Of a stretch of 45,766 nt of DNA, positions 17,657-44,877 are shown piece by piece. A program made the translations under genes and the position numbers. Source of the DNA: a virus. Its lineage: Duplodnaviria; Caudoviricetes. The notes under the pieces are model-generated. The model was not told the origin of the DNA. It saw only the letters and a program-made list of their open reading frames with translations, and made no database searches. The first letter of the stretch is position 1. The number at the start of each line of letters is the position of its first letter. The stretch covers positions 1 to 45,766 of the IMG/VR virus record IMGVR_UViG_3300020554_000012, one strand, 5' to 3'.

Positions 17657-18118
17657 TTACGCTTTTCTGCCCTGGAGTATATGTGGGCCAGAGTTGCGCT
17701 GCTGAACATTGGACATCCCGTTCTTGCGATGCTGTTCGTCTAGCCATTCTTCTCGGGTTGGCATATCTCCACCGTCAATAACCTTCGGTTCGGCTACATA
17801 ATATTTTCCGTAAGACTTTGACTTCTTCTTCGAGTCGGACTCTTGCGCCCTCTCAATGGACGCTCGAGACTTAGAGAAGCGAGCTTTGGCGTCAAAGGTT
17901 ACACGATCAGACTCATCCCACCATAGTGGAATACCATCCCTGTACCAATCCTCCAGGATATAGTGCGCCTTGAGTAGTCGGTAGTCCCACATCGTCCACT
18001 TCTTGTGCGATGGGTCGCTAAAAATAACAGCAATGGGTGGTTGCCCCGTACCGACCGCGGCCTTGAGGTAGGTCGCTATGAACCTATTCTGTGGCCAGGT
18101 TAGGGCTTCGCTAAAAAA
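17657..18118 (-). CDS. Tail assembly chaperone, -1 frameshift extension (gpGT-like)
   Basis: The -1 frame is open from slippery T TTT TTA (18112-18118): FSEALTWPQNRFIATYLKAA...WTMWDYRLL..., ending at 17657. Confidence 0.85.
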   Translation of the reverse strand, partial: FFSEALTWPQNRFIATYLKAAVGTGQPPIAVIFSDPSHKKWTMWDYRLLKAHYILEDWYRDGIPLWWDESDRVTFDAKARFSKSRASIERAQESDSKKKSKSYGKYYVAEPKVIDGGDMPTREEWLDEQHRKNGMSNVQQRNSGPHILQGRKA

Positions 18119-18726
18119 TCCTCACCAGTGTCCATGGTGAAGATTGCCGTAGACGCCCTCAGCTTTTCAATGGCCTCATTGATTCTTACCATTGCGTTCA
18201 GCGGGAACGATTCGCGCATCGTGCGGATGGTGGAGTAGGCAAACTCTGTTTGCTCGTCGCCATCGGGGTTTACAATCTTCTGGATATGACCTTGCCACAA
18301 GTAGTCAGTAAAGAGTGCGTCACGTTCCGGTGAGTTTTTTTCAATCTTATTAGACTCGACACCGATAAGACTAGAGATACCGCTCTGTGCTTGATACTCG
18401 ACGGGATACTTCTTTACTGCCTGACGGTAAAACTCTTCCCTCTTACCCTCGGAGATACCCATAAGATGCACGGTATATTTGGAGGCAACCAGTCGGGCTT
18501 GGGTCTCGTTACGCTTTGTTGTCAACTCTTCGCGCTGAACATTTTGTTTTTCTGTAAGCCCCTCGAGTTCCTCTGCAATTGTAGAGAGTTCGTACATGGC
18601 TGCTTCGTCCATGTAAATATCAATCTCGGTCTTGGGGTAGCCACGCTCTTGTAGAACCTGGACAATATTAAAAGTGCCGGGTGCCTTGGCGGCTTCTACC
18701 GACTCAAGGATATCTTCTTCTGACAA
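18100..18726 (-). CDS. Tail assembly chaperone (gpG-like)
   Basis: Between tail tube and tape measure; ends EDFLAKP over the slippery site; AGGAGG RBS. Confidence 0.88.
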   Translation of the reverse strand: MSEEDILESVEAAKAPGTFNIVQVLQERGYPKTEIDIYMDEAAMYELSTIAEELEGLTEKQNVQREELTTKRNETQARLVASKYTVHLMGISEGKREEFYRQAVKKYPVEYQAQSGISSLIGVESNKIEKNSPERDALFTDYLWQGHIQKIVNPDGDEQTEFAYSTIRTMRESFPLNAMVRINEAIEKLRASTAIFTMDTGEDFLAKP

Positions 18727-18814: not shown

Positions 18815-19570
18815 TTAGGAAACTGTTACAACACAAGTGTCGCTGTTGCCGTTGTTTGGCCATGTTCCAGTAATGGTAGCCGAACCGTTTGAAAGCGCAG
18901 TTACAACACCGGCGGTGGAGACCGTAGCAACCGCAGGGTTGCTGGACTTCCACTGAATGCCATAGGTGTAGTTGCGTCCACCAAGAGTGGCGCTCAGCTT
19001 GCTAACAGCAGGATCGGTCACAGCCAAGGTGGCTGGCAACACAACTGGTGTCAGGGCCGAACCGATGACCGTGCGAACAGCAAAGTCACCCTGGGGGAGC
19101 ATGGTTACCGTATAACGGAACGCTTCCTCACCAACAATAGACTCAGCGTATCCATCGGTCATTACCTTGAATACGTGCACAAGTTGACCGTTGGCGGCCA
19201 ATGGGTTGGTGCGCTCGCCATCGATACGGATGACAAGGTAACCCTTAGTGCGTGGTGCGTCAAGCGCGTCGTAAGCCAGCGAGTAAACACTGGATGCGTC
19301 GTCAAAGTCGCGTGGGTAGTAAAGGGAAAGCGATCCACCGAAGTTAGTAAAACCACGGTCAATGACTTTACCAATAGCGGTGATGGCTGGGTCATCCAGC
19401 TCATTGCTCGCCTCGAGGTTGAAGTCAAAATCGTTCCAAGAGATAGCGTCCGAGATGTCCAACGATGCGTTGATCTCGGCTGCTGTGGGGGCCTGGTAGT
19501 TAGCGAAGGCGTTTTCCAATGCCCACCATACACGGATGTTACCGCTTGCGGGTACTCTTACGTCAGTCAT
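18815..19570 (-). CDS. Major tail tube protein with C-terminal Ig-like (Big_2) domain
   Basis: APTAAEIN...DISDAI actinophage tail-tube motif; WKSSNPAVATVS..GVVTA...GSATIT. Confidence 0.85.
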   Translation of the reverse strand: MTDVRVPASGNIRVWWALENAFANYQAPTAAEINASLDISDAISWNDFDFNLEASNELDDPAITAIGKVIDRGFTNFGGSLSLYYPRDFDDASSVYSLAYDALDAPRTKGYLVIRIDGERTNPLAANGQLVHVFKVMTDGYAESIVGEEAFRYTVTMLPQGDFAVRTVIGSALTPVVLPATLAVTDPAVSKLSATLGGRNYTYGIQWKSSNPAVATVSTAGVVTALSNGSATITGTWPNNGNSDTCVVTVS

Positions 19571-20112
19571 TAGGAGTTAGTCACCTCGTAGTTCCAGTTC
19601 ACGAAGTCGTTGTTAAGGAACGACTGGCTGATGCGAAGGTTCTCGCCGCTAGCGGCAACATCAATACCAAAGTCAGTCTTAACGCCAACCATCTTTACGC
19701 GGTCGTCCACAGCGAATGGAGTATCGCTGCGTCCGCCCACACGGAGGATTGCAATATATTCAATGTCCGGCCAAGCCAAAAGGTCAAAGGCCAGGTTGTA
19801 CTCACCGGCGGCAGTAACGTCAGCGTCGCGGAACGCTTCGAAAACAACCTCGGGGTTGTAGAACGTGGGGGTAGAAACGTTGCCGGCGTCACAGAATGTA
19901 ACTGAATCGTCGGTGTCCGAATCTCCCAGCGTGAAAGTGGTTCCGTCCTCATTGAGCGCACAGGTGATGTTGTAGACCAGGCCGTCTGCGTTGGTGCTTG
20001 CGTCGAACCAGTCGTTCAATTCAGCAGCAGTTGGAGCGGTACGGTCAGCAAATGCCTCCGGGTGCGCGAGGAGGAACGTAATATTCTCACGGTAGAGTCT
20101 TACGTTTGCCAT
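19570..20112 (-). CDS. Second tail-tube-like protein (paralogue)
   Basis: AFADRTAPTAAELN...NITCAL...SDT.D...C motif. Confidence 0.75.
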   Translation of the reverse strand: MANVRLYRENITFLLAHPEAFADRTAPTAAELNDWFDASTNADGLVYNITCALNEDGTTFTLGDSDTDDSVTFCDAGNVSTPTFYNPEVVFEAFRDADVTAAGEYNLAFDLLAWPDIEYIAILRVGGRSDTPFAVDDRVKMVGVKTDFGIDVAASGENLRISQSFLNNDFVNWNYEVTNS

Positions 20113-20376: not shown

Positions 20377-20835
20377 CTAAGAGCCTATATACGAGTCCGG
20401 GTTCTCTGAGTTGAATCGGAATCCAAGTGTTCCAATACCCAAATAAAGATGTGGCGAACCGTTCCTATCTGTTACCGGAAACACAGTCTGCCCCAGCGTG
20501 GGCGTCAATGCCGCACCGTTTGATATCTTCCAACCAATCAGTTGGTCCATAAAAAGATTCAATACCTTGCGCGCAATTCTTGGCGCTGGTGCCACTGCAA
20601 TAATGTCAAATCTAGATGAGTACTCATCGTGTCGAACTCCGGCAAAAGATGCGTTAGCTACCTCGCGGGTTAGCCCGCTCCAACGGATAACTACAAAGGG
20701 TTTTGTTTTTCTGTCTATACGCATGAGGTATTCGTCATCAAGAACCTCGTCTTCCTTGACCTCGTACTGCGGAAAAGATGTCTCAATATGTAAAGCTATT
20801 TCGTCCTGAATAGCCACCAGGTCTATGCCATTCAT
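20377..20835 (-). CDS. Tail terminator/completion protein
   Basis: Synteny and size; PFVVI motif. Confidence 0.6.
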   Translation of the reverse strand: MNGIDLVAIQDEIALHIETSFPQYEVKEDEVLDDEYLMRIDRKTKPFVVIRWSGLTREVANASFAGVRHDEYSSRFDIIAVAPAPRIARKVLNLFMDQLIGWKISNGAALTPTLGQTVFPVTDRNGSPHLYLGIGTLGFRFNSENPDSYIGS

Positions 20836-21386: not shown

Positions 21387-21850
21387 TATGAACCGCCGGA
21401 ATCCGCAGTGGACTTGACATCAGCGTCACACTCGATAGTTCTGTTCCATCCGTAGGAGGAATTGATAGCGGATCGCACGGTAAGAATCAGGTTCTCGAGA
21501 ACCACATCTTCCCCGCCGTCGGTAATCCTAATTTGCATACCCTCGCGAATAAGGGAAAGGTTGGCGTCATAAGGAACTTGAATCCTAACCCCCCGGACGG
21601 CACCCTGCATGATGTCCATATCCGGCAATCTCTCTGTTTTGATTGGCTGTACCCTGGCCGACCCAGACCAAATTACGGTCTCCGAGTTGGAGATGTAGTC
21701 GTTAGTAAACTCATCCCACTCCTGCTCGCGAATGTTTGTATCAATGATTTCTATTTGAGCGTTATACCAGCGCGCAACAGCGGCGCGCATTTCCATAGCA
21801 ATGCTGGCGAAGTCGATGGGCGAGCTACTAGATACCGGCATTAGTTCCAC
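21386..21850 (-). CDS. Head-to-tail stopper
   Basis: IWSGSARVQP...RIQVP...R.IEC; synteny. True start may be the ATG at 21841. Confidence 0.7.
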   Translation of the reverse strand: MELMPVSSSSPIDFASIAMEMRAAVARWYNAQIEIIDTNIREQEWDEFTNDYISNSETVIWSGSARVQPIKTERLPDMDIMQGAVRGVRIQVPYDANLSLIREGMQIRITDGGEDVVLENLILTVRSAINSSYGWNRTIECDADVKSTADSGGS

Positions 21851-22266
21851 CAGGTGTAGTCTTCGTACTCCCGTTCCGCGAAGTCCATGTAGTGATCTTT
21901 ATCGACATACATTGCAACCAGGTTAAAGTATTCTGAGGACTCGTCAGCAAGGGCCTCTTGGCGCAACTGAGCCGCAATCTTGCGAAGCGATTCGGCAATG
22001 CGATCGCCATTGACAGTAAGGTCGTCGCTGGACCAGGACTTGAGTAGTAGTGCCTGAGAGGAGGCAATCGTCTCCATCGCACGGGCGGTAGCCAGCTTGA
22101 CGTTCTCGCCATACATTTCAAGGAAAGCGTTGATTTCATCATCGCTAAAATAAAGGTATTCACCGACGCCACTAATAACATTAGTAGCAACCGTGTCACC
22201 TAGAAGTACTCTTACTTTTCCGGTATCGGAATTGAAGTTAACAGGAGAGACGCCAAGGTTTGCCAT
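21841..22266 (-). CDS. Head-to-tail adaptor
   Basis: GKVRVLLGDT...FSDDEINAFL...DDLTVNG..A..LR..A motif. Confidence 0.8.
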   Translation of the reverse strand: MANLGVSPVNFNSDTGKVRVLLGDTVATNVISGVGEYLYFSDDEINAFLEMYGENVKLATARAMETIASSQALLLKSWSSDDLTVNGDRIAESLRKIAAQLRQEALADESSEYFNLVAMYVDKDHYMDFAEREYEDYTWWN

Positions 22267-22284
22267 GTTCTTATTTTACCGCAT

Positions 22285-22361
22285 AAAAGGGAACCCCGCA
22301 CCGGAGCCGGGGAAGGGGGGTTAGGCTCGACGGTGCGGGGAATCCAGCAGGAGGGGCTGGT
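22285..22361 (-). ncRNA. Candidate two-hairpin small RNA with C-rich/anti-SD loops
   Basis: Extended -10 TGATAACTT (22368-22376); hairpin CCAGC-CCCUCCU-GCUGG; long hairpin with loop UAACCCCCCUUCCCC; UUUU tail. Confidence 0.55.
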
Positions 22362-22381
22362 ATTACAAAGTTATCATAAAA

Positions 22382-23056
22382 ATGAAGTACTATTTGAGTG
22401 TGCCCAGACTTGCCGTTGTTCTCACATTGTACGACAGATTAGAGTATTTAGATAGGCAAATATCAGAACTCGGCGCTCAGCGCAATCAAGATTTTGATTT
22501 GTATATATGCAATAACAGCGCGCAAGATGTATCGTTTCCTGGCGCCCGTGTATATAACTACTTCAACAAATACAAAATGTACGGCAGGTTCTATCTAATC
22601 AGGGACCACATTGCAAACGCCGACTACGATATGGTGCTGCTCGTGGATGACGACGAGACGTTTCCGCCCGACCTAATAGACGAATGCTACCGACAGTTCG
22701 ACGAGTGTATCGTAAAGTCCTTCTGGGGCTTCCAGACGTACCAGGATTACTGGGTGAGGGATAGACTGCGGGGCGACTGGAAAGGCGATTACGCGGGCAC
22801 TGGTGGCCTGCTGAGCCCTATTGAGCTGTGGCGTGTCCCCGAAGTTTATGAGGCACCGGAAGAATATTGGATTATAGATGATCTCTGGTTGTCTCACTGC
22901 ATATTGAGATATACCGACTACTTGATTATGGGGCTCAACGTTGCAATTACCTTCTATAAAGATGAGGGAAAGAAGGCAACGTACTTATCAATCAAGCCAT
23001 TGAAGTCAGCGTTTCATAAAGAATATATTATGCCTTACCGCAGAGCCATCGAATAG
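22382..23056 (+). CDS. Glycosyltransferase, GT-A (GT2-like)
   Basis: VVLTLYDR..L, YICNN, LLVDDD and IDDLWLS motifs. Real start may be GTG 22400, 6 nt after TACTAT. Confidence 0.8.
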   Translation: MKYYLSVPRLAVVLTLYDRLEYLDRQISELGAQRNQDFDLYICNNSAQDVSFPGARVYNYFNKYKMYGRFYLIRDHIANADYDMVLLVDDDETFPPDLIDECYRQFDECIVKSFWGFQTYQDYWVRDRLRGDWKGDYAGTGGLLSPIELWRVPEVYEAPEEYWIIDDLWLSHCILRYTDYLIMGLNVAITFYKDEGKKATYLSIKPLKSAFHKEYIMPYRRAIE

Positions 23057-23984
23057 CGTTGTGCAGTTCCCCAATCTGTTTAGAAAACTCTTTGGATAAA
23101 TTGAACGCACGGGCCTCGGCCTTCTGGGAATACTTCTGATAAGTCCGCTCGTCGTCAAGCGACTTTATTAATCTGACAAAAGAGTTTACGTCGTCGGGCT
23201 CGGCAAGCATTCCAGCGTCTCCAACTGATTCGACCAGGCCACGAGCATTTGAGCCAACGACAGGTATCCCTGATGCCATTGCCTCGACAGCAGCCCTGCC
23301 CCAGCTTTCGTACTTTGAGGGCATAAAGAATATTTTCGTCTGAGCGTAAATCGACTTCATGTTGCCAGTGTTTTCTACCACGCTCACGTTGCCCAACCTC
23401 TTGACTATTTGAGTTCCATAGCCACCCCTCACTGCCAGGAACTCTCGATCGCTAAGAATTTCCGCAACCCGCCAAAACATATTGACACCCTTGATGTCAA
23501 TGAGATTTATAAATGTAATCTTGCTCGCGTCTTGTCGCTCGGTTTTGTAAGTGTCAATGTCCGTGTGTGGATTGACAATCATCTTGGTTAGATTGTTAAT
23601 CTTTATTCCGTCGTAGACCCACTTGGAGTTCGCGACTACTAAGTCGGAATTTGTTGTATTTAATCTAAAGAGTTTTACGGCCTGATCATTGTGAACGAAA
23701 TGAACAATCGGTTTATTGATTGACTTGGCGTGGGTTATGGCGTGCTTGGTATCGTGATTTTGCGTGAAGACAATATCCGCATCAAACTCATAGACCTGTG
23801 AGTACTTGATAATCCGTATTCCGTCTACAACCTTGTGCTGAGGATTTGGCTGCGCCACCATAACTTCGTGCCCAAGATTGCGCAGGGACAAAAGTATTTC
23901 ATGCAACATCAACTCAGCGCCGGCCCGAGTGGATGGTGGATATAGATTTACATAGGCGAGAATTTTAGCCATTGGCCCAACCAT
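23028..23984 (-). CDS. Glycosyltransferase, GT-B (GT4-like)
   Basis: AGAE...GHEV and MPSKYESWGRAAVEAMASGIPVV signature. Confidence 0.92.
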   Translation of the reverse strand: MVGPMAKILAYVNLYPPSTRAGAELMLHEILLSLRNLGHEVMVAQPNPQHKVVDGIRIIKYSQVYEFDADIVFTQNHDTKHAITHAKSINKPIVHFVHNDQAVKLFRLNTTNSDLVVANSKWVYDGIKINNLTKMIVNPHTDIDTYKTERQDASKITFINLIDIKGVNMFWRVAEILSDREFLAVRGGYGTQIVKRLGNVSVVENTGNMKSIYAQTKIFFMPSKYESWGRAAVEAMASGIPVVGSNARGLVESVGDAGMLAEPDDVNSFVRLIKSLDDERTYQKYSQKAEARAFNLSKEFSKQIGELHNAIRWLCGKA

Positions 23985-24696
23985 GCAGCCCTGGCAAAGA
24001 TTTCAACAATTGCTCATCCCTAAATCCTATGTGTGTTATGTAAGCGTCGTATGGATTGTCCGCCCAGAATCCAACCGTAGCGCTACTGTCAAGCTTTAGT
24101 AACTGTATTCCAAAATCATACTCGTGGCTTGGTGTGTTGGGATACTTGTTGTCAAGCACTCTTCTATGAAACACTGATGGATTATGCGCCCAGAAGTAGA
24201 AGTGCCCTCTTGTTTCGTACCAGTGGTCTCGCTTTATCGCAACTTGCCCCTTGTCATCGTTTAAGTGATGCAACAACAGGCTGCCAGCATCCAGATCAAG
24301 ACGATGGTATTCGGAGTGCCACACCGTGCGGGGAACGCGCATCTGGATAATGTGTGGATTATTGCATAACTCATATATTACGCTCTGAACATCTAGCGGC
24401 CTGAATAGCATCCAGTCTTCTTCGATTCCAAGGAAGTAGTCAACGTCAAGCTCGCGCAACGTGTCGAATATCTTCTGTACCGCTATGGCTTGACCGGCCA
24501 CGCCACTGGATATGGGAACAATCGTAAAGTCCTGGCCGTAATTATTGACAAGCCATTTGACGTGCTCAGGGTCGCCGGAGTCATCGAAGATATAACTATA
24601 CTTAGGCTTGTCTACCAGATTTGCCAGCCAAGAAGCTATGGTTCGCTCTATGTATCCGCGTCTACCGTTCCCTAAAATATACCAAGCGTAATCCAT
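23965..24696 (-). CDS. Glycosyltransferase, GT-A (GT2-like)
   Basis: GRRGYIERTI.S, IFDDSGD, EEDW, HNPS and HIG motifs. Confidence 0.8.
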   Translation of the reverse strand: MDYAWYILGNGRRGYIERTIASWLANLVDKPKYSYIFDDSGDPEHVKWLVNNYGQDFTIVPISSGVAGQAIAVQKIFDTLRELDVDYFLGIEEDWMLFRPLDVQSVIYELCNNPHIIQMRVPRTVWHSEYHRLDLDAGSLLLHHLNDDKGQVAIKRDHWYETRGHFYFWAHNPSVFHRRVLDNKYPNTPSHEYDFGIQLLKLDSSATVGFWADNPYDAYITHIGFRDEQLLKSLPGLHGWANG

Positions 24697-24700
24697 GCTT

Positions 24701-25327
24701 CTATTTTAGTGCAAACACTCCGGACTTATTAGTGGCATTTGGACCTGGCAATGTAAAGTTCGTTTCTTTTTCATTTATGCCATCTTGATACACCATTGGA
24801 TCAGTGAGCCCGTAAACCTCAAAATACTTTACGAGCTCGGCGTTCGCCTTGTCTACTGGTTCGGATACTGATACAAGAAAGTCATATGACCTCATAAGTA
24901 ATTTGGCATAATCTCTATTGAAGTAAACAATGCCGTGCGTTGAGAGCATATTGTAAATCCGATATAAATCTCTACTGTGTTGCTCAACTGATATGCGTGT
25001 GTGCCCCGTGCCATTGTAAATGCCCCAGCGGGATATGCCGACGTACAAAGCATCGGCGCTGTCCGGCACATCTATTGTGGTGTTTGGGTTTTTTATGAAG
25101 ATGTCATCTTCGAATATTGCGAATGGGCCACTTGTTGATTCAAGAGCGGTGCCGATTGCCTTGATGTGCGCCATGGTGCAGCCAACAATTTTGCCCAGGC
25201 CCTCGATGCCGGAAATTCTTGTAACGCTTTCGAACCCAAGAATCTTTAGAACGGATTCTGTAGATTCTTTTTTATGGACATCGGCATCCATGTTTATGTA
25301 GAACGCCGGAATCTTATTTATTTCCAT
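24701..25327 (-). CDS. Glycosyltransferase, GT25-like
   Basis: FYINMD...RISG...GCTMAH...IFEDD...LYVG motifs. Confidence 0.8.
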   Translation of the reverse strand: MEINKIPAFYINMDADVHKKESTESVLKILGFESVTRISGIEGLGKIVGCTMAHIKAIGTALESTSGPFAIFEDDIFIKNPNTTIDVPDSADALYVGISRWGIYNGTGHTRISVEQHSRDLYRIYNMLSTHGIVYFNRDYAKLLMRSYDFLVSVSEPVDKANAELVKYFEVYGLTDPMVYQDGINEKETNFTLPGPNATNKSGVFALK

Positions 25328-25348: not shown

Positions 25349-25370
25349 GGCCCCCGGTTTCCCGGGGGCC
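25349..25370 (-). terminator. Intrinsic terminator after the major capsid gene
   Basis: GGCCCCCGG-GAAA-CCGGGGGCC followed by TTTGTGTT. Confidence 0.8.
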
Positions 25371-25386: not shown

Positions 25387-26511
25387 TTAGGAGCCTGCTG
25401 CGCCAGTCGAGTAGCGCAGACCATCCTTGGTGATGTTGTACGCCTGTACAACGTGGCGGATACGGGTCTGAACGTCGTCCTCGTCGAAGCTACCGTCACG
25501 AACGGGGACCTCTCCACCGGCGAGGGTGAAGTGTCCGTTGTCCTTGATGGAGATAAGAGGAGTGCGTGCGCCCGAGAGGAAGACCTCCCAGAAGTACGGA
25601 CGGGTGTTCAGGTCCGGAATCACGAACCACCATGCGTCAGTCTGTCCACCCGAAACCGTGTCGAGAGCATTGAACTCGATTGGGTTGAATGGGCTGGTGA
25701 TGAACGATGGGTTCAGGATTGTGGTCTCAGAACCGGAAACGCGCTCGATCTGCGAGATAGCAAACAAGTTACGAACGGTCATCGCGAGCGAGGTGCCGTA
25801 GACGAGCTTGTAGTTGTTTGCGACCACGCGGTTGCCACCAACGGTGTCTTCGCGCGATGATGCCATAGCGTTCTCGAGGGCGGTAAGGCTCAGGGCTGGG
25901 TTACCAGCAAGGCCCTTGCCCGAGAAGCCGGTGCCGACAGCGCCAGCGGTGGTAACAAACAACTTGGCCAGAGCGATGTCTTCCTGACGCGCAGCGTACT
26001 GTGCGAAACGAGAAGTCATCTGTCCGATCATGTCGAAGTTACCAATGCGACGCAAGGATTCCCATGACATACGGGCACGGATACCAGTTTTGCCTTCGAA
26101 GTCCTTGTCGAGCTGAGTGGTGGTGAACGGAACTGCGGGGTACTCTTCGTACTCTCCGACAGCGGGAAGTCCACCCTCAATGAATTCCTCACCAGTGCCG
26201 CTTACAAGCGCGCTGGGGTCAACCTGGAAGTCACCGAAACGAATGATGCCAAAGTTGTCGGTGATGTACTCATCGGCAATCTGGTTCCATACGTTCTGCT
26301 CCGCAGCGTACTGTGCGAGGAAGATAACGTTAATAGCAGGCTCCAGGACGGTGGGAATGTCCGAAGAGGAGATTCCTTCCTGAAGCATCACCTTTGCACG
26401 AAGGTCACCCGACAGTGCGTTAGTCAGAAGCTTTGCAGCCTCAATCTGACGCTTGGTCGAACGCTCTTCAATGCGGGCGATCTCCTGCTCAACAACTTTA
26501 ATGTTAGCCAT
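25387..26511 (-). CDS. Major capsid protein (HK97 fold)
   Basis: LQEG.SSSD.P, LP.VGE.EEYP and GSFDEDD...RIRH motifs; follows cement gene; followed by a terminator. Confidence 0.9.
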   Translation of the reverse strand: MANIKVVEQEIARIEERSTKRQIEAAKLLTNALSGDLRAKVMLQEGISSSDIPTVLEPAINVIFLAQYAAEQNVWNQIADEYITDNFGIIRFGDFQVDPSALVSGTGEEFIEGGLPAVGEYEEYPAVPFTTTQLDKDFEGKTGIRARMSWESLRRIGNFDMIGQMTSRFAQYAARQEDIALAKLFVTTAGAVGTGFSGKGLAGNPALSLTALENAMASSREDTVGGNRVVANNYKLVYGTSLAMTVRNLFAISQIERVSGSETTILNPSFITSPFNPIEFNALDTVSGGQTDAWWFVIPDLNTRPYFWEVFLSGARTPLISIKDNGHFTLAGGEVPVRDGSFDEDDVQTRIRHVVQAYNITKDGLRYSTGAAGS

Positions 26512-32454: not shown

Positions 32455-32486
32455 GGGGGGGGGAGTAATCCCCCCCCTATTTTTTT
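32455..32486 (+). terminator. Intrinsic terminator
   Basis: G-run/C-run hairpin with GTAA loop followed by a T tract. Confidence 0.8.
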
Positions 32487-32564
32487 GGCCGCCAAAGTGA
32501 AGAATCCTCACTTCTTGATCGAATATGTGAGGATTCCTCATTTATAACGATTTGGTAACGGGAC

Positions 32565-32593
32565 TTGACAAAGTGGCATTTTTTTGCTAGGCT
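32565..32593 (+). promoter_or_regulatory. SigA-type promoter
   Basis: TTGACA-N17-TAGGCT with TG extension. Confidence 0.7.
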
Positions 32594-32834
32594 TGGTTTG
32601 GTGCCCAAAAAACAGATAACGATTTGGTAACGGTCGGCGTGTCGATTTGACAGCGCGTTGCCAATCGAACATTTGTTCAGGCCCAGATAACAATTCGATA
32701 ACGGTGGGCGTGTCGACTTGACAATTGGATTTTCGATCCGCTCGGCGTGTCGACTTGACAATACGCTGCCGATATGATAAGCGGACATCACGGTTTCCGT
32801 TATGAAACTGTTACCAAAAAACTACGGTTTCGAC

Positions 32835-32863
32835 TTGACATTATCCCCCCCCCGTGGTATAGT
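32835..32863 (+). promoter_or_regulatory. SigA-type promoter
   Basis: TTGACA-N17-TATAGT with TG extension. Confidence 0.85.
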
Positions 32864-32928
32864 GTAACTATGAAGATGAGGGATAGAACATAGGGGTGAA
32901 ACACTCAATAACACATTGAGGGTTTGAC

Positions 32929-32957
32929 TTGACAAGTAGCGCCAAGTGTGCTATAGT
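32929..32957 (+). promoter_or_regulatory. SigA-type promoter
   Basis: TTGACA-N17-TATAGT with TG extension. Confidence 0.85.
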
Positions 32958-33147: not shown

Positions 33148-33219
33148 CCGCCAAATTGTCCTGGGCACGACACTAAACTACCCACGAATGAACACACCGA
33201 TCGAACTAGGGGGACAACT

Positions 33220-33492
33220 ATGGCACGCCTACGACGGCGTGTAGTCACCAGTAGGCGTGTGCCTGTGCGATTCGTGGAAACACGCACGCGGAAACAGACA
33301 CGCGAATACATGGACGAACTACTCGCGCAGAAGATACAACAGTGGCGCACGGATTTAGCGGAGCGCGGGATTACTCTCACTGACGCAATGGTGGAGGAAC
33401 GACGGTTTAGGGTGAGCGCTGCCGAACCGGTCTACGACTTTGGCGACACTCTATTACTAGGCTATCGCTACGATATTACGGCTCTAGTCTAA
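33220..33492 (+). CDS. Hypothetical early protein
   Basis: TAGGGGG RBS; 90 aa. Confidence 0.6.
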   Translation: MARLRRRVVTSRRVPVRFVETRTRKQTREYMDELLAQKIQQWRTDLAERGITLTDAMVEERRFRVSAAEPVYDFGDTLLLGYRYDITALV

Positions 33493-33630
33493 CAGTAGTC
33501 CTATATACCTATTATACTATAATAGCATTATAGTATTACCTTATAGTAGCACCAGAACACGCAAACACACATCGGCGGATCGACGGGGAAGTCTATCCGC
33601 AGCGGAATCGAAAATTGCCAAAATTAGGAC

Positions 33631-33659
33631 TTGACAACACGAAAACACTATGCTATGCT
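33631..33659 (+). promoter_or_regulatory. SigA-type promoter for the early gene chain
   Basis: TTGACA-N17-TATGCT with TG extension. Confidence 0.85.
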
Positions 33660-33712
33660 GTAGATATTACAGCGAACTAACCTAGCAATAGCGCTAGAGA
33701 ATAGGGGGGAAT

Positions 33713-33880
33713 ATGACACGGCCAACACTAAAAGACATCACGGTAAGTCGTCCTAGTGGCGCTTACGTTATCGACTGTGACCGGTCTTGCGAGAATCCAC
33801 GACTGGACCATATGTTCATGGGATACACCAAAAAAGAAGCGCTACAAGTGTGGCGCATGCAGCACCCTAGGGGGGGGTAA
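33713..33880 (+). CDS. 55-aa hypothetical protein (not in ORF track)
   Basis: TAGGGGGG RBS; SGAYVI...FMGYTKKEA motif. Confidence 0.65.
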   Translation: MTRPTLKDITVSRPSGAYVIDCDRSCENPRLDHMFMGYTKKEALQVWRMQHPRGG

Positions 33881-33882
33881 CT

Positions 33883-34023
33883 ATGTGGGTAGTGGAATAC
33901 CACCACGACGGTGGCCAGATGATTACGACCTACGACCCAGGACACTATGACGGTGTACTGGAGTGGTATCAGGACCAAGTAGCACGTGGAGAACTGTACG
34001 CATATCAGATAGGGGACAAGTAA
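33883..34023 (+). CDS. 46-aa hypothetical protein (not in ORF track)
   Basis: G-rich RBS; TAATG coupling; similar to 31804-31938. Confidence 0.65.
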   Translation: MWVVEYHHDGGQMITTYDPGHYDGVLEWYQDQVARGELYAYQIGDK

Positions 34024-34214
34024 TGACACGCAAGGACTATCAAGCGATAGCACGGGTAATCAGCACGACAACGCGACACATCATGCCGAACAACGAGTGG
34101 CAGTATATGGTGACACGTCTGGGCAATCTGTTTGCGGCGGACAATCACCTATTCGACCACGACAAGTGGTACAACGCATGTAACACGGAATATCGGGAAG
34201 TAGGGGGACAATGA
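34023..34214 (+). CDS. Hypothetical protein, 'MTRKDY..IA' small phage family
   Basis: MTRKDYQAIA...F.ADN..FD..K...AC pattern. Confidence 0.75.
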   Translation: MTRKDYQAIARVISTTTRHIMPNNEWQYMVTRLGNLFAADNHLFDHDKWYNACNTEYREVGGQ

Positions 34215-34459
34215 TAACAATCTTCGAGACCAAGTACCACGGACCAACGGACCACGCTGGGCCACGGATCAACGTGAAGAATACGCGGACCGGTAAGTCA
34301 CGGTGGCACAGTTGGGACTACAGCGTGAACGGTGGACCGGACCAGCACGCTCACGCTGTGAGAGAGTGTTCTGCGGCCATATTCGAGAAGGTGGAGTACG
34401 GCGGGGAGACCAAGGACGGATACCTATTCATCACGACAACGAGAGAGGACGAACTATGA
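34211..34459 (+). CDS. Hypothetical protein
   Basis: TKYHGPTD..G.RI...WDY...H...GYLF pattern; ATGA coupling. Confidence 0.75.
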   Translation: MITIFETKYHGPTDHAGPRINVKNTRTGKSRWHSWDYSVNGGPDQHAHAVRECSAAIFEKVEYGGETKDGYLFITTTREDEL

Positions 34460-34557
34460 ACCCAGCGCTATATGAGGGGACAGAATCGCTGTGGCCTATG
34501 GGGATAGTCGCGGTTGTACTGTGGCTAATCGTACTAATCAATTGGAGGAAGCAATGA
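34456..34557 (+). CDS. Small membrane peptide
   Basis: One TM helix; ATGA coupled on both sides. Confidence 0.55.
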   Translation: MNPALYEGTESLWPMGIVAVVLWLIVLINWRKQ

Positions 34558-34628
34558 ACACAGAGGACGACGACGAACAATTTTGGGACGAATTCTTCGG
34601 GATAAAGGAGTGGGCTAATGAGGAGTAA
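34554..34628 (+). CDS. 24-aa acidic peptide MNTEDDDEQFWDEFFGIKEWANEE
   Basis: GGAGG RBS, ATGA overlap. Confidence 0.45.
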   Translation: MNTEDDDEQFWDEFFGIKEWANEE

Positions 34629-34881
34629 GACAGACAGCACAACGCAGACAGCGTTTATGACGAAGTACTACCGGAAGGAATATGCAGCGCTAATCGGCCG
34701 GAAGGTGGTCGACATGAGAGCAATGTATCCGGAGGAAATGGAACTATTCATGTGGCACGGTGAGCCAGGGTGTGTGCTAATCCTGGACGACGGGGGATTA
34801 GTAATCCCAATGATGGACGAAGAGGGCAACGGGCCAGGCCAACTAATGGTACAAGTCAAATACACAAGGGAGACAGCATGA
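34618..34881 (+). CDS. Hypothetical protein
   Basis: L.GRK....R.M..EE.....W...LDDG...P..DEEGNGPG.L motif. Confidence 0.75.
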   Translation: MRSKTDSTTQTAFMTKYYRKEYAALIGRKVVDMRAMYPEEMELFMWHGEPGCVLILDDGGLVIPMMDEEGNGPGQLMVQVKYTRETA

Positions 34882-35066
34882 CAGAGTGGCGATTCACAAT
34901 CAAGCGCACCGACTTGGGAGAAGTCACGGTGGCAGCGGACACGGAAGCAGAAGCACGAATCAAAGCACGCGACTATGCCGAGCGCATAATCCAAGTGGAC
35001 GGTAAGTCTTGGCAGACCATGCGGTTCGTCAAGGAGAATCTGATCGAAGTAATCGGGGGAGAGTAA
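34878..35066 (+). CDS. Hypothetical protein
   Basis: V.ADTEAEARIKA motif; ATGA coupling. Confidence 0.65.
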   Translation: MTEWRFTIKRTDLGEVTVAADTEAEARIKARDYAERIIQVDGKSWQTMRFVKENLIEVIGGE

Positions 35067-35152
35067 TGAGCCGCCACTACGGGGAATACGCATTCCCGAT
35101 ATCAGAAGAAGAAGACAACGAAACAATCCAGGAACTAACGGAGGAGAACTAA
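35066..35152 (+). CDS. 28-aa acidic peptide
   Basis: TAATG-coupled at both ends. Confidence 0.5.
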   Translation: MSRHYGEYAFPISEEEDNETIQELTEEN

Positions 35153-35466
35153 TGGGAGACCGGAACAACATCAAGGTGACCTATAGCAACGGTGGGAGTG
35201 TGTATCTGTACTCACACTGGGGCGGCAGCGGACTGAAGGATATCGTGGAGGGAGCGCTGGACTGTGGCAGAGTGAGCGACGAATCATACTTCACGCGGAT
35301 ACTGTTCTCGCGTATGGTGGCGGACGATATCAACGGGGAGACCGGATACGGTATCGCACCCTATGCGCCGGACCAGGACTACGGGAACGACATGATACAT
35401 ATCGACTACACCAGTGGCGAAGGAAGACTGCCGCAGATTGACTGGGCATACAAGGAGGAAGAATGA
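35152..35466 (+). CDS. Conserved hypothetical phage protein
   Basis: MGDR.N...VYLYSHWGG...R..D.SY.TRI.F..M...ETGYGI. Confidence 0.8.
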   Translation: MGDRNNIKVTYSNGGSVYLYSHWGGSGLKDIVEGALDCGRVSDESYFTRILFSRMVADDINGETGYGIAPYAPDQDYGNDMIHIDYTSGEGRLPQIDWAYKEEE

Positions 35467-35687
35467 ACGAGAGCGTAATTACTCACGAGTACTACAACCC
35501 TAACGAACTATCGGAAATGGTGGTGGAAGCAATCATCAGGCACGTTGGGGACTACGCGAACCTACACGGACAAGGGTGGCTTGATATCGAGGAGACACTG
35601 ACGACAGCGTTCTCGGATATCGTGCGAGTCGAGGACGACGGGTACGGTGGCTTCACGAAGGTAATCACCATCAAGAAGGGGGAGTAA
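35463..35687 (+). CDS. Hypothetical protein
   Basis: AAGGAGG RBS; coupled to neighbours. Confidence 0.65.
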   Translation: MNESVITHEYYNPNELSEMVVEAIIRHVGDYANLHGQGWLDIEETLTTAFSDIVRVEDDGYGGFTKVITIKKGE

Positions 35688-35875
35688 TGGAAGTATTCTA
35701 CGTCGATCACCAGTGGAAGCAGAGCGACGAATTCTGGCAGTGGGAGTGCAGCAAGTGCGGAGAGCGTTGTCGCGTTAGGCGAACAGCAAGGGGTGGCTTC
35801 ATCTACGCGATGAGGGAACCAGGAGACACACGCGGACAGTTGTGTGTTGTAATCGAGAGAGAGTGGAGGAACTAA
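35687..35875 (+). CDS. Small CxxC-containing protein
   Basis: H.W...WECSKCG; TAATG coupling. Confidence 0.6.
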   Translation: MEVFYVDHQWKQSDEFWQWECSKCGERCRVRRTARGGFIYAMREPGDTRGQLCVVIEREWRN

Positions 35876-36252
35876 TGGGTACAACGGGTAATCCAGTAGG
35901 TTACTGGGACGTGGACAGCACCGAGAAGATTAGAGAATGGATACGCAAGACCTACTCATGGGAGGGTTGCGAAGTCCTCGACGTGGCACAAGGTACCAAG
36001 CGCAAGAGTAATTGGTGGCTGGTGCTGCGCGAGCCAATGAGCGGCAAGATCAGAGCAATGGTAGTCATCACACAGAATCGTGCGAAGCGCGAGGGTATGT
36101 TCTACACCAAGGAAGTAGTGGAGGATATGGGACCATACGCTACGGATATTCCCAAGCGGTTGTTCTCCATGCTCACGCCACTGGAAGAGGGAGAGAACGA
36201 GTTCGCCGAGAACTGGCGAAACCTGGTAAGCAGCGGAACAGTGAGGGGATAG
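35875..36252 (+). CDS. Hypothetical protein (DUF6927-like)
   Basis: KEV.EDMGP....P...L..LTP...A.NWR motif. Confidence 0.7.
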   Translation: MGTTGNPVGYWDVDSTEKIREWIRKTYSWEGCEVLDVAQGTKRKSNWWLVLREPMSGKIRAMVVITQNRAKREGMFYTKEVVEDMGPYATDIPKRLFSMLTPLEEGENEFAENWRNLVSSGTVRG

Positions 36253-36254
36253 CA

Positions 36255-36578
36255 ATGAAGGTAAGCATTAGCGAAACCTATGCGCGCAAAAAGAACTGGG
36301 AGCGCAAGCAATACAAGTACGACCGACCAGAGTATCCAAGCAGGGTATTCCTGGAGTTTGGCGAGACGGTGTGGGAGCACCTAGAGAATCGCCGATCACG
36401 ACCATGGCAGGAACTCAAGCCATTAGTTAGTGACGCACTGGTAGAGATTGGTGTGTCGGTGGATAAGTTGCGGTGGGATATCAACGCAGGGTGCGGCATG
36501 TGTCCATGCAGCGGTGGCTTCCTTGTCGAGGGTGAGGAAGGTAAGGACTACTTCGCAAAGGTGGTAAGCAATGCCTAG
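36255..36578 (+). CDS. Hypothetical actinophage protein with AGCGMCPCSGGF motif
   Basis: E...E.L.NR..RP...W...AGC..CPCS.GF. Confidence 0.75.
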   Translation: MKVSISETYARKKNWERKQYKYDRPEYPSRVFLEFGETVWEHLENRRSRPWQELKPLVSDALVEIGVSVDKLRWDINAGCGMCPCSGGFLVEGEEGKDYFAKVVSNA

Positions 36579-44805: not shown

Positions 44806-44877
44806 TGGCCACTAGCTCAATGGCAGAGCAACCGCCTGTTAAGCGGTAGGTTCTTGGTTCGAGTCCAAGGTGGCCAG
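44806..44877 (+). tRNA. tRNA-Asn (GTT), CCA not encoded
   Basis: Acceptor TGGCCAC/GTGGCCA, D arm GCTC/GAGC, anticodon arm ACCGC-CTGTTAA-GCGGT, T arm CTTGG-TTCGAGT-CCAAG, discriminator G. Confidence 0.95.

Follow-up and report, generated by a model that had tools for sequence, protein, structure and literature searches.

A candidate two-hairpin small RNA with anti-Shine-Dalgarno loops among the structural genes of a probable Microbacteriaceae phage and its relatives

Known C-rich-loop RNAs and the phage locus

The control of translation by phages is usually credited to proteins. Among bacterial regulators, the staphylococcal RNAIII and RsaE carry C-rich loops that pair with Shine-Dalgarno (SD) regions, in a phylum, size and structure different from those of the element considered here. 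The actinobacterial 6C RNA binds mRNAs through its C-rich loops in a chaperone-free manner, as stated in the available text of PMC6486639, and the Pleft region of the mycobacteriophage cluster A is described in the accessible part of PMC5712189 as abundant and toxic to the host.

The element lies in the virus record IMGVR_UViG_3300020554_000012, whose 45,766 nucleotides (the window, i.e. the whole stretch of DNA that was analysed) represent a siphophage estimated to be 85% complete, probably a Microbacteriaceae phage. The host family is taken from one of the two genome-collection matches to the window, a contig in a Microbacteriaceae metagenome-assembled genome (MAG), the other match, in an Opitutia MAG, being probably a mis-binned contig. 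The window encodes WhiB, its closest cultured capsid relatives are Pan2 and the Clavibacter phage CN1A (~40%), and its virion genes occupy the minus strand and its early genes the plus strand. The unit sits between a gene named head-tail adaptor from gene order and four glycosyltransferase-like genes inserted as a block, among the following features:

18100-18726, minus strand: tail assembly chaperone gene, a late gene with an AGGAGG SD, full match to loop 1
21841-22266, minus strand: putative head-tail adaptor gene, which always follows the unit; phrog_18316 and phrog_1732 (unknown function)
22273-22281, minus strand: separate -10 box (TAAAAT) of the adaptor gene, 6 nt before its ATG; leaderless start
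22285-22361, minus strand: predicted 77-nt small RNA, +1 A at 22361
22285-22293, minus strand: pyrimidine/U tail UUCCCUUUU, a weak intrinsic terminator
22294-22340, minus strand: hairpin 2, a long covarying stem with the loop UAACCCCCCUUCCCC at 22323-22309
22324-22331, with its 3' side at 22307-22303, minus strand: near-invariant bulge motif, G-UY-GAG paired with CUC-C
22344-22360, minus strand: hairpin 1, a 5-bp stem (CCAGC 22360-56, loop CCCUCCU 22355-49, GCUGG 22348-44)
22368-22376, minus strand: extended -10 promoter TGA-TAACTT (TGA 22376-74, TAACTT 22373-68) without a TTGACA -35, predicted to be of the late class
22382-23056, plus strand: GT2-like glycosyltransferase gene, divergently oriented and variable in occurrence as an insert, with a Pfam PF00535 match short of the cut-off (E = 0.003)
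23028-25327, minus strand: three more glycosyltransferase-like genes, an insertion that separates the capsid terminator from the RNA promoter
25349-25370, minus strand: the major capsid gene's own terminator, whose equivalent stands directly before the RNA promoter in insert-free relatives
25387-26511, minus strand: major capsid gene, with the SD AUAGGUGA
32835-32957, plus strand: two early-arm promoters (TTGACA/TATAGT), of a class different from the RNA promoter
33200-36260, plus strand: the earliest genes, with G-rich SDs (UAGGGGG, GAAGGGGG, GGAGG), the best predicted targets

Several other features of the window were recorded in passing. The four-gene glycosyltransferase block (22382-25327) has leaderless starts in part, and a possible -10 of its divergent gene overlaps the RNA promoter region. 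Ahead of the early promoters, three repeats spaced 71-72 nt (ATAACGATTTGGTAACGG, GTGTCGACTTGACA; 32544-32843) form a possible operator or origin array, and a G9/C8 hairpin with a T tail (32455-32478) separates the late arm from the early one. At 18815-20112 two paralogous major tail protein genes stand in tandem, each assigned to phrog_2491, and a tRNA gene is on the plus strand at 44806-44877.

Fold, conservation and strand of the unit

The first-pass annotation had described a minus-strand extended -10 followed by two hairpins and had seen no open reading frame (ORF) there, and both points hold on re-reading: TAACTT is separated by a 6-nt spacer from the A at 22361 (minus strand), and the window ORF list contains no ORF of at least 70 aa overlapping the element. 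The 5' side of hairpin 2 runs as CCCCGCACCG (22340-31), a UC bulge (22330-29) and GAGCC before the loop, and the 3' side as GGCUC and CGGUGCGGGG to 22294, giving the layout of 10 bp, UC bulge, 5 bp and loop; this hairpin is likely also the 3' boundary of the RNA. The U-tract is short and offset by 5 nt. The minus strand folds at -36.3 kcal/mol, with the two hairpins in both the MFE and the centroid structure, both loops almost wholly unpaired in the prediction, and z = -3.91 (0/200 shuffles as good). Loop 1, CCCUCCU, matches the CCUCCU core of the host-family 16S tail in three Microbacteriaceae genomes, where the 16S gene ends in GAUCACCUCCUUUCU and the mature 3' end is taken from the gene end. 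The plus strand folds too (z = -3.28), and an extended -10 by itself would often arise at random (167 copies vs an expected 143), so the window alone proves little, and it is the sequence conservation across relatives that constitutes the evidence beyond chance.

The related loci were pooled via the adaptor protein (n = 109); 13 had too little upstream DNA, and the 96 left represent 61 distinct regions, in all of which the unit stands ahead of the adaptor gene. The model R1, by which the window copy scores 87 bits, gave 49 matches in the 50 loci submitted to it. Parsing located a TANNNT box in 59 of the 61 relatives, and the remaining two read TAACTT by eye; the hexamer has 16 variants and is TG-extended in 49. 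Among the 49 relatives with the CCAG stem, the distance from the -10 to stem 1 is 7-8 nt in 46 of the 47 measured, and 25 different spacer sequences fill it; key bases and a distance that stay constant around a freely changing spacer suggest promoter selection.

Conservation of the loops, on which the first-pass annotation had staked its distinction from an ordinary terminator, is pronounced: CCTCC (CCUCC in RNA) occurs in 61/61 distinct upstream regions, including the locus L418, where loop 1 reads UUUUCUCCUUUC and CCTCC sits in loop 2, and loop 2 is C-rich in 51/61. A plain intrinsic terminator was rejected on these conserved loops, on the separate terminator upstream and on the conserved -10 between the two. 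Stem 1 is unchanged in 44/49, carries a compensatory two-sided change in 4/49 and is broken in 1/49. Covariation across the related phages was found in stem 2, with two-sided changes in 11 of 16 pairs in an unfitted MAFFT alignment of 16 sequences, and in 12 of 16 pairs in 47 distinct model-aligned copies, an alignment which, being fitted to the model, leans toward it; 97.3% of 746 cells are paired vs 33-49% in slid controls, and the covariation of the model-aligned copies was reached in 0/500 shuffles. The 3' tail is U-rich in most relatives and almost absent in the locus L019.

As concerns the strand, in the inner 14 pairs of stem 2 read on the minus strand, G-U occupies 16 cells vs 1 for A-C (a count of cells and not of events), an imbalance that speaks for a minus-strand RNA. 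A function of the plus strand, as the 5' untranslated region of the glycosyltransferase gene or a G-rich sponge, or of the DNA as a cruciform or G-quadruplex, would agree with the good folding and G-richness of that strand, but the glycosyltransferase gene is upstream in only 6/61 relatives, the wobble pairs speak for the minus strand, and the conserved -10 has the orientation of a minus-strand promoter; the plus-strand reading, which the first-pass annotation had itself raised for the glycosyltransferase leader, is largely refuted and very improbable.

The neighbourhood bears on a further alternative, namely that the unit acts in cis as a second terminator, a processing signal or a leader setting the expression of the adaptor operon. 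The capsid gene ends at most 500 nt upstream in 50/61 relatives, neither it nor the glycosyltransferase gene is upstream in 5, and the element does not depend on the glycosyltransferase insert. A regular expression found a -10 belonging to the adaptor gene itself, 5-7 bases ahead of its ATG, in 59/61 relatives, the two misses being start-coordinate offsets; the gene lacks an SD, and its leaderless start means that no upstream leader is needed. Since the upstream terminator and the downstream promoter belong to other genes, the unit is bracketed between them. That the unit precedes the adaptor gene in every near relative and in most of the cultured cases, and that its weak U-tract would allow read-through, speaks for cis action; against it, the capsid gene already ends in a terminator, the adaptor gene starts from its own promoter, a terminator needs neither conserved loops nor a -10 of its own, and in the phage Yappy the unit precedes a different gene, so that cis action is judged distinctly improbable.

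Taken over the relatives, the self-contained minus-strand RNA with conserved anti-SD loops claimed by the first-pass annotation is well supported by the conservation, the -10 and the covariation: the unit is very probably a real RNA element and probably a standalone small RNA. A blastn search of the region against GenBank phages gave no match. Pattern scans were discarded, as a portal-gene family dominated the matches in the viral scan and those in the genome scan were due to chance. A search for a host homolog with R1, which scored at most 32 candidates in each of 141 Microbacteriaceae genomes and is a weak negative, gave one match, the tuf terminator, which was rejected.

Cultured actinophages, Shine-Dalgarno contrast and the bulge motif

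The gap before the adaptor homolog was read in 14 cultured phages plus Lupine, and the succession of a -10, CCUCC hairpin loops and a leaderless adaptor start was found in CN1A (loop UUUCCUCCUUCU), Pan2 (GUUUCCUCCUUUC), Jojan60 (UUUCCUCCUUUC), OlinDD, Lupine, Amigo and Molivia. CMP1 shows the layout with degenerate loops, and Satis an unclear one. No unit stands before the adaptor homolog in LuckyBarnes, TripleJ, BV-113, MinS1, Nonagon and Yappy, the last of which carries a complete unit relocated before gene 51, with a -10, the loop UUACCUCCA and a terminator loop UGCCUCC; the scan for relocated units covered the fetched genomes at up to 50 kb each and was non-exhaustive, having missed the unit of Pan2. 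Nonagon, which is ambiguous and was counted as negative, shares with Commonplace a common 5-bp CCUCCU hairpin before the protease gene, without a terminator. In the cultured phages the stems are wholly different, while CCUCC is present in the loops, some of which are almost identical to the 16S tail. R1 gave no significant score on the cultured units (CN1A and Amigo best, E about 3), so their likeness rests on position and layout, and they may be homologous to or convergent with the window unit.

The unit is unannotated in the records of the cultured phages. The Pan2 record has a spurious antisense ORF, Pan2_07, covering it, and the deposited adaptor starts of CN1A (L296:5285), OlinDD (L319) and Jojan60 (L313) miss the leaderless ATG 6-7 nt after the -10. 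Jojan60, Pan2 and MinS1 (L336, L337, L341) are deposited with non-actinobacterial hosts, yet they are actinophage-like, with WhiB or Lsr2 annotated in two of the three and related structural genes in all, and these host labels look doubtful.

The strength of SDs was compared between late and early genes on deposited starts (one CN1A start corrected), with our own early/late split, made from arm and function. The late/early medians (kcal/mol) are -4.6/-9.2 in the window, -6.5/-9.4 in CN1A (p 0.003), -7.8/-9.3 in Amigo (p 0.019), -6.8/-8.2 in OlinDD (p 0.025), -6.4/-11.0 in Jojan60 (p 0.0001), -3.9/-9.5 in Pan2 (p 0.0002) and -6.1/-10.1 in Yappy (p 0.0002). Thus, the virion SDs are weaker than the early ones at p<=0.025 in 7/7 unit-bearing and 0/5 unit-less genomes, a comparison confounded by the relatedness of the genomes, by integrases in 3 of the 5 negatives and by the reclassification of Yappy after the genome scan. 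The unit-less values are p = 0.39 for LuckyBarnes, 0.08 (reversed) for TripleJ, 0.48 for BV-113, 0.11 for MinS1 and 0.96 for Nonagon, in which 7/21 late genes are leaderless without a clear unit; CMP1, with its degenerate unit, gave p = 0.07. Most early starts of the window had first been picked by their SD, and the contrast holds at the 21 early starts that were fixed, whatever their SD, by coupling to the stop of the preceding gene (-9.2 vs -4.6, p = 1.6e-5). Among the uncultured relatives with at least 7 early homologs, it is significant in 3/6.

In line with the G-rich early genes named as possible targets in the first-pass annotation, duplex prediction in the window gave pairing at -9 kcal/mol or better for 27/34 early vs 6/25 late genes, the top early pairings being with loop 2 at 34211 (-20.5 kcal/mol), 33883 (-17.9) and 35687 (-17.7). 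The capsid gene SD, the same in 4/6 relatives and AAGGAU in 2, gives -2.6 and -3.0 kcal/mol against the loops, and the capsid gene is predicted to escape them. The proposed escape of leaderless late transcripts is an oversimplification: 8 of 25 late genes of the window look leaderless, but 17 do not, and two (18726, 20835) carry AGGAGG, the full match to loop 1. At the tail chaperone gene this match (-10.3 kcal/mol) is kept in 4/5 relatives with a located start; the match at 20835 is not conserved in the relatives.

These data also bear on a narrower job for a trans-acting anti-SD RNA, which would tune a few targets, whether the leading G-rich early genes, the tail chaperone gene or host defence mRNAs, the SD contrast then arising from another cause, e.g. 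the competition of early genes with host mRNAs for ribosomes. The clustering of the best pairings on few early genes and the conserved tail-chaperone match fit it, as does the count of AGGGG-led starts, 5-17 per contig in six contigs with loop 2 vs 0-3 in three without it (two of them fragments), which is suggestive of a link with loop 2. Against it, no single early target site is conserved among the relatives, and the loops are short, generic and near the 16S tail in distant phages. The narrow job is judged rather unlikely. Co-evolution of the loops with their own SDs was not seen, own loops fitting early genes no better than the loops of other phages, and hence these data do not separate host from phage targets. 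Judged by the modelled pairing, the RNA is probably an SD-pairing repressor.

The stem-2 bulge motif is kept more strictly than the loop above it: in the 47 copies the flanking G and GAG are invariant (47/47), the first bulge base is U in 46, the second is U in 36, C in 9 and A in 2, and the motif persists in relatives without loop 2. By eye, related bulges are present in CN1A and Pan2 and, with the strands swapped, in Yappy and Amigo, and none is clearly evident in OlinDD, Jojan60 and CMP1. From its sequence pattern, the bulge is a possible protein-binding site. The arginine sandwich motif of 7SK and TAR, as given in the available text of PMC6189040, comprises a bulged pyrimidine, a triple with a stem pair and arginine binding; the pyrimidine bulge, the invariant first U and the succession of G-C and then A-U pairs are similar here, and the resemblance lies in sequence pattern and secondary structure alone. 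An early gene at 33220-33492 encodes an arginine-rich N-terminus without a Pfam match, and its product would be a speculative partner for the bulge.

The bulge is central to another explanation, in which the unit is a decoy or protein scaffold, its loops mimicking the 16S 3' tail for toxins that cut the anti-SD or for tail-binding proteins, or the bulge being the main ligand. The greater invariance of the bulge, its survival after the loss of loop 2 and its fit to the arginine-sandwich description in the accessible part of PMC6189040 favour such a role, as does the cutting of the 16S anti-SD by actinobacterial toxins reported in the available text of PMC12620021. However, the loops do not seem to include the 5' portion of the tail, which adjoins the cut site reported there, the bulge is not evident by eye in the three phages named above, and the SD contrast is left unexplained, which makes the decoy improbable.

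A separate observation concerns an unrelated abundant phage family (L027-L146; e.g. L037:2490-2564, L033, L044), the portal of which is 46% like that of Streptomyces phage Immanuel3. A conserved hairpin inside the end of its portal gene, formed by CCUCCUGCUGG and an arm further downstream that contains AGGAGG (89/89 distinct filtered copies), has the same G-UU-GAGC/GCUC-C bulge, with a covarying flanking pair (GC 69, AU 12, UA 4, GU 4); this likeness is partly forced by the search pattern, the outer arm and the covariation being not forced.

Proposed role and comparison with described RNAs

On the observed fold, covariation, strand, promoter-like conservation, match of loop 1 to the 16S tail and SD contrast of the unit-bearing phages, we infer transcription, late timing, repression and a chaperone-free pairing as in 6C. 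The preferred reading is that of a conserved two-hairpin late small RNA, whose loops would pair with strong SDs and damp host and early phage translation, and we hold it with about even confidence. The own -10 box would yield an RNA of roughly 77 nt late in infection, the timing being suggested by a promoter which lacks the early-type TTGACA and resembles the leaderless virion-gene promoters. The open loops, capable of G-C-rich pairing, would cover strong SD sites without a chaperone, so damping the translation of host and early phage mRNAs and shifting the ribosomes to virion mRNAs. Escape would come in degrees: the heads of operons are leaderless, the capsid and major-tail genes have weak or GGUGA-type SDs that the loops leave uncovered, and the few late genes with AGGAGG would be repressed too. 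The invariant bulge may serve for protein binding or for the stability of the RNA.

A broad role in the early-to-late switch or in host shut-off is evenly poised between acceptance and doubt. The widest version, in which an RNA mimicking the 16S tail runs both the switch and the shut-off in many lytic actinophages, with virion genes rebuilt to resist it and a TAR-like bulge recruiting a protein, is tentative and doubtful. If true, the scheme would present a simple RNA-only takeover device, a phage RNA competing with the ribosome for SD sites, and a reason for the leaderless late genes of actinophages. The presence of the unit in phages of easy laboratory hosts, such as Lupine (Microbacterium foliorum), Amigo and Molivia (Arthrobacter), makes the idea directly testable.

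A literature search, to which most subscription papers were closed, found no published description of the element, a term search of the preprint 10.1101/2021.04.21.440840 gave no mention matching it, and the motif may be among the 10,006 candidates referred to in the available text of PMC10690425. In the Rfam search of the window only a tRNA was above cut-off, with no match to RNAIII or RsaE, and nothing relevant was obtained for 12 related loci. The Rfam comparison proposed in the first-pass annotation thus yielded no 6C (RF01066, 47-bit cut-off) match in the window or these loci even below cut-off, and a single sub-threshold likeness, that of hairpin 2 to F6 / SfdS (RF01791), which aligns over the whole model at 28.3 bits (E = 0.0034, 351-nt search), short of the 46-bit cut-off, and was not recovered in the relatives tested. 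In the F6 search of 81 genomes and the 6C search of 3 genomes, controls reached the cut-off in 0/14. The unit shares with F6 a long stem and a C-rich loop, but F6, by the accessible text of PMC8557902, is SigF-driven and chromosomal, in the fadA2-fadE5 context, whereas here a TANNNT -10, phage structural genes and an extra anti-SD hairpin are found.

The cuckoo RNAs, as described in the available part of PMC4615179, are similar in their adjacent hairpins (two to four there, two here), variable stems and anti-SD loops. They differ in having CCUCCUCCC in every loop, where the unit has CCCUCCU and UAACCCCCCUUCCCC, in stems of similar size, and in alphaproteobacterial hosts, the WhiB gene, the actinophage relatives and the Microbacteriaceae MAG contig pointing elsewhere. 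The cuckoo or RNAIII design claimed in the first-pass annotation therefore gives way to 6C as the closer analogue. The cluster A Pleft RNAs and the WC1 nc regions are likewise actinophage non-coding RNAs, which, compared by description only and as far as the accessible texts of PMC5712189 and PMC10986025 go, differ as early-promoter transcripts at the genome end.

With 6C / B11, as presented in the available text of PMC6486639 and PMC5014011, the element has in common the host phylum, the C-rich hairpin loops and, as predicted, the short standalone form, the U tail and the proposed chaperone-free pairing of the loops with G-rich ribosome-binding sites. The differences are that it is phage-borne, about 77 nt long vs the 93 nt of 6C, and marked by the additional bulge, and that loop 1 reads CCCUCCU, not the six conserved C of the 6C loops; the number of C in loop 2 is six in the window and four to six or none in the relatives. 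The element would work like the C-rich-loop small RNAs, such as 6C or cuckoo, and is a member of no family tested; what is new is its phage origin and the early/late SD split that accompanies it in the cultured phages.
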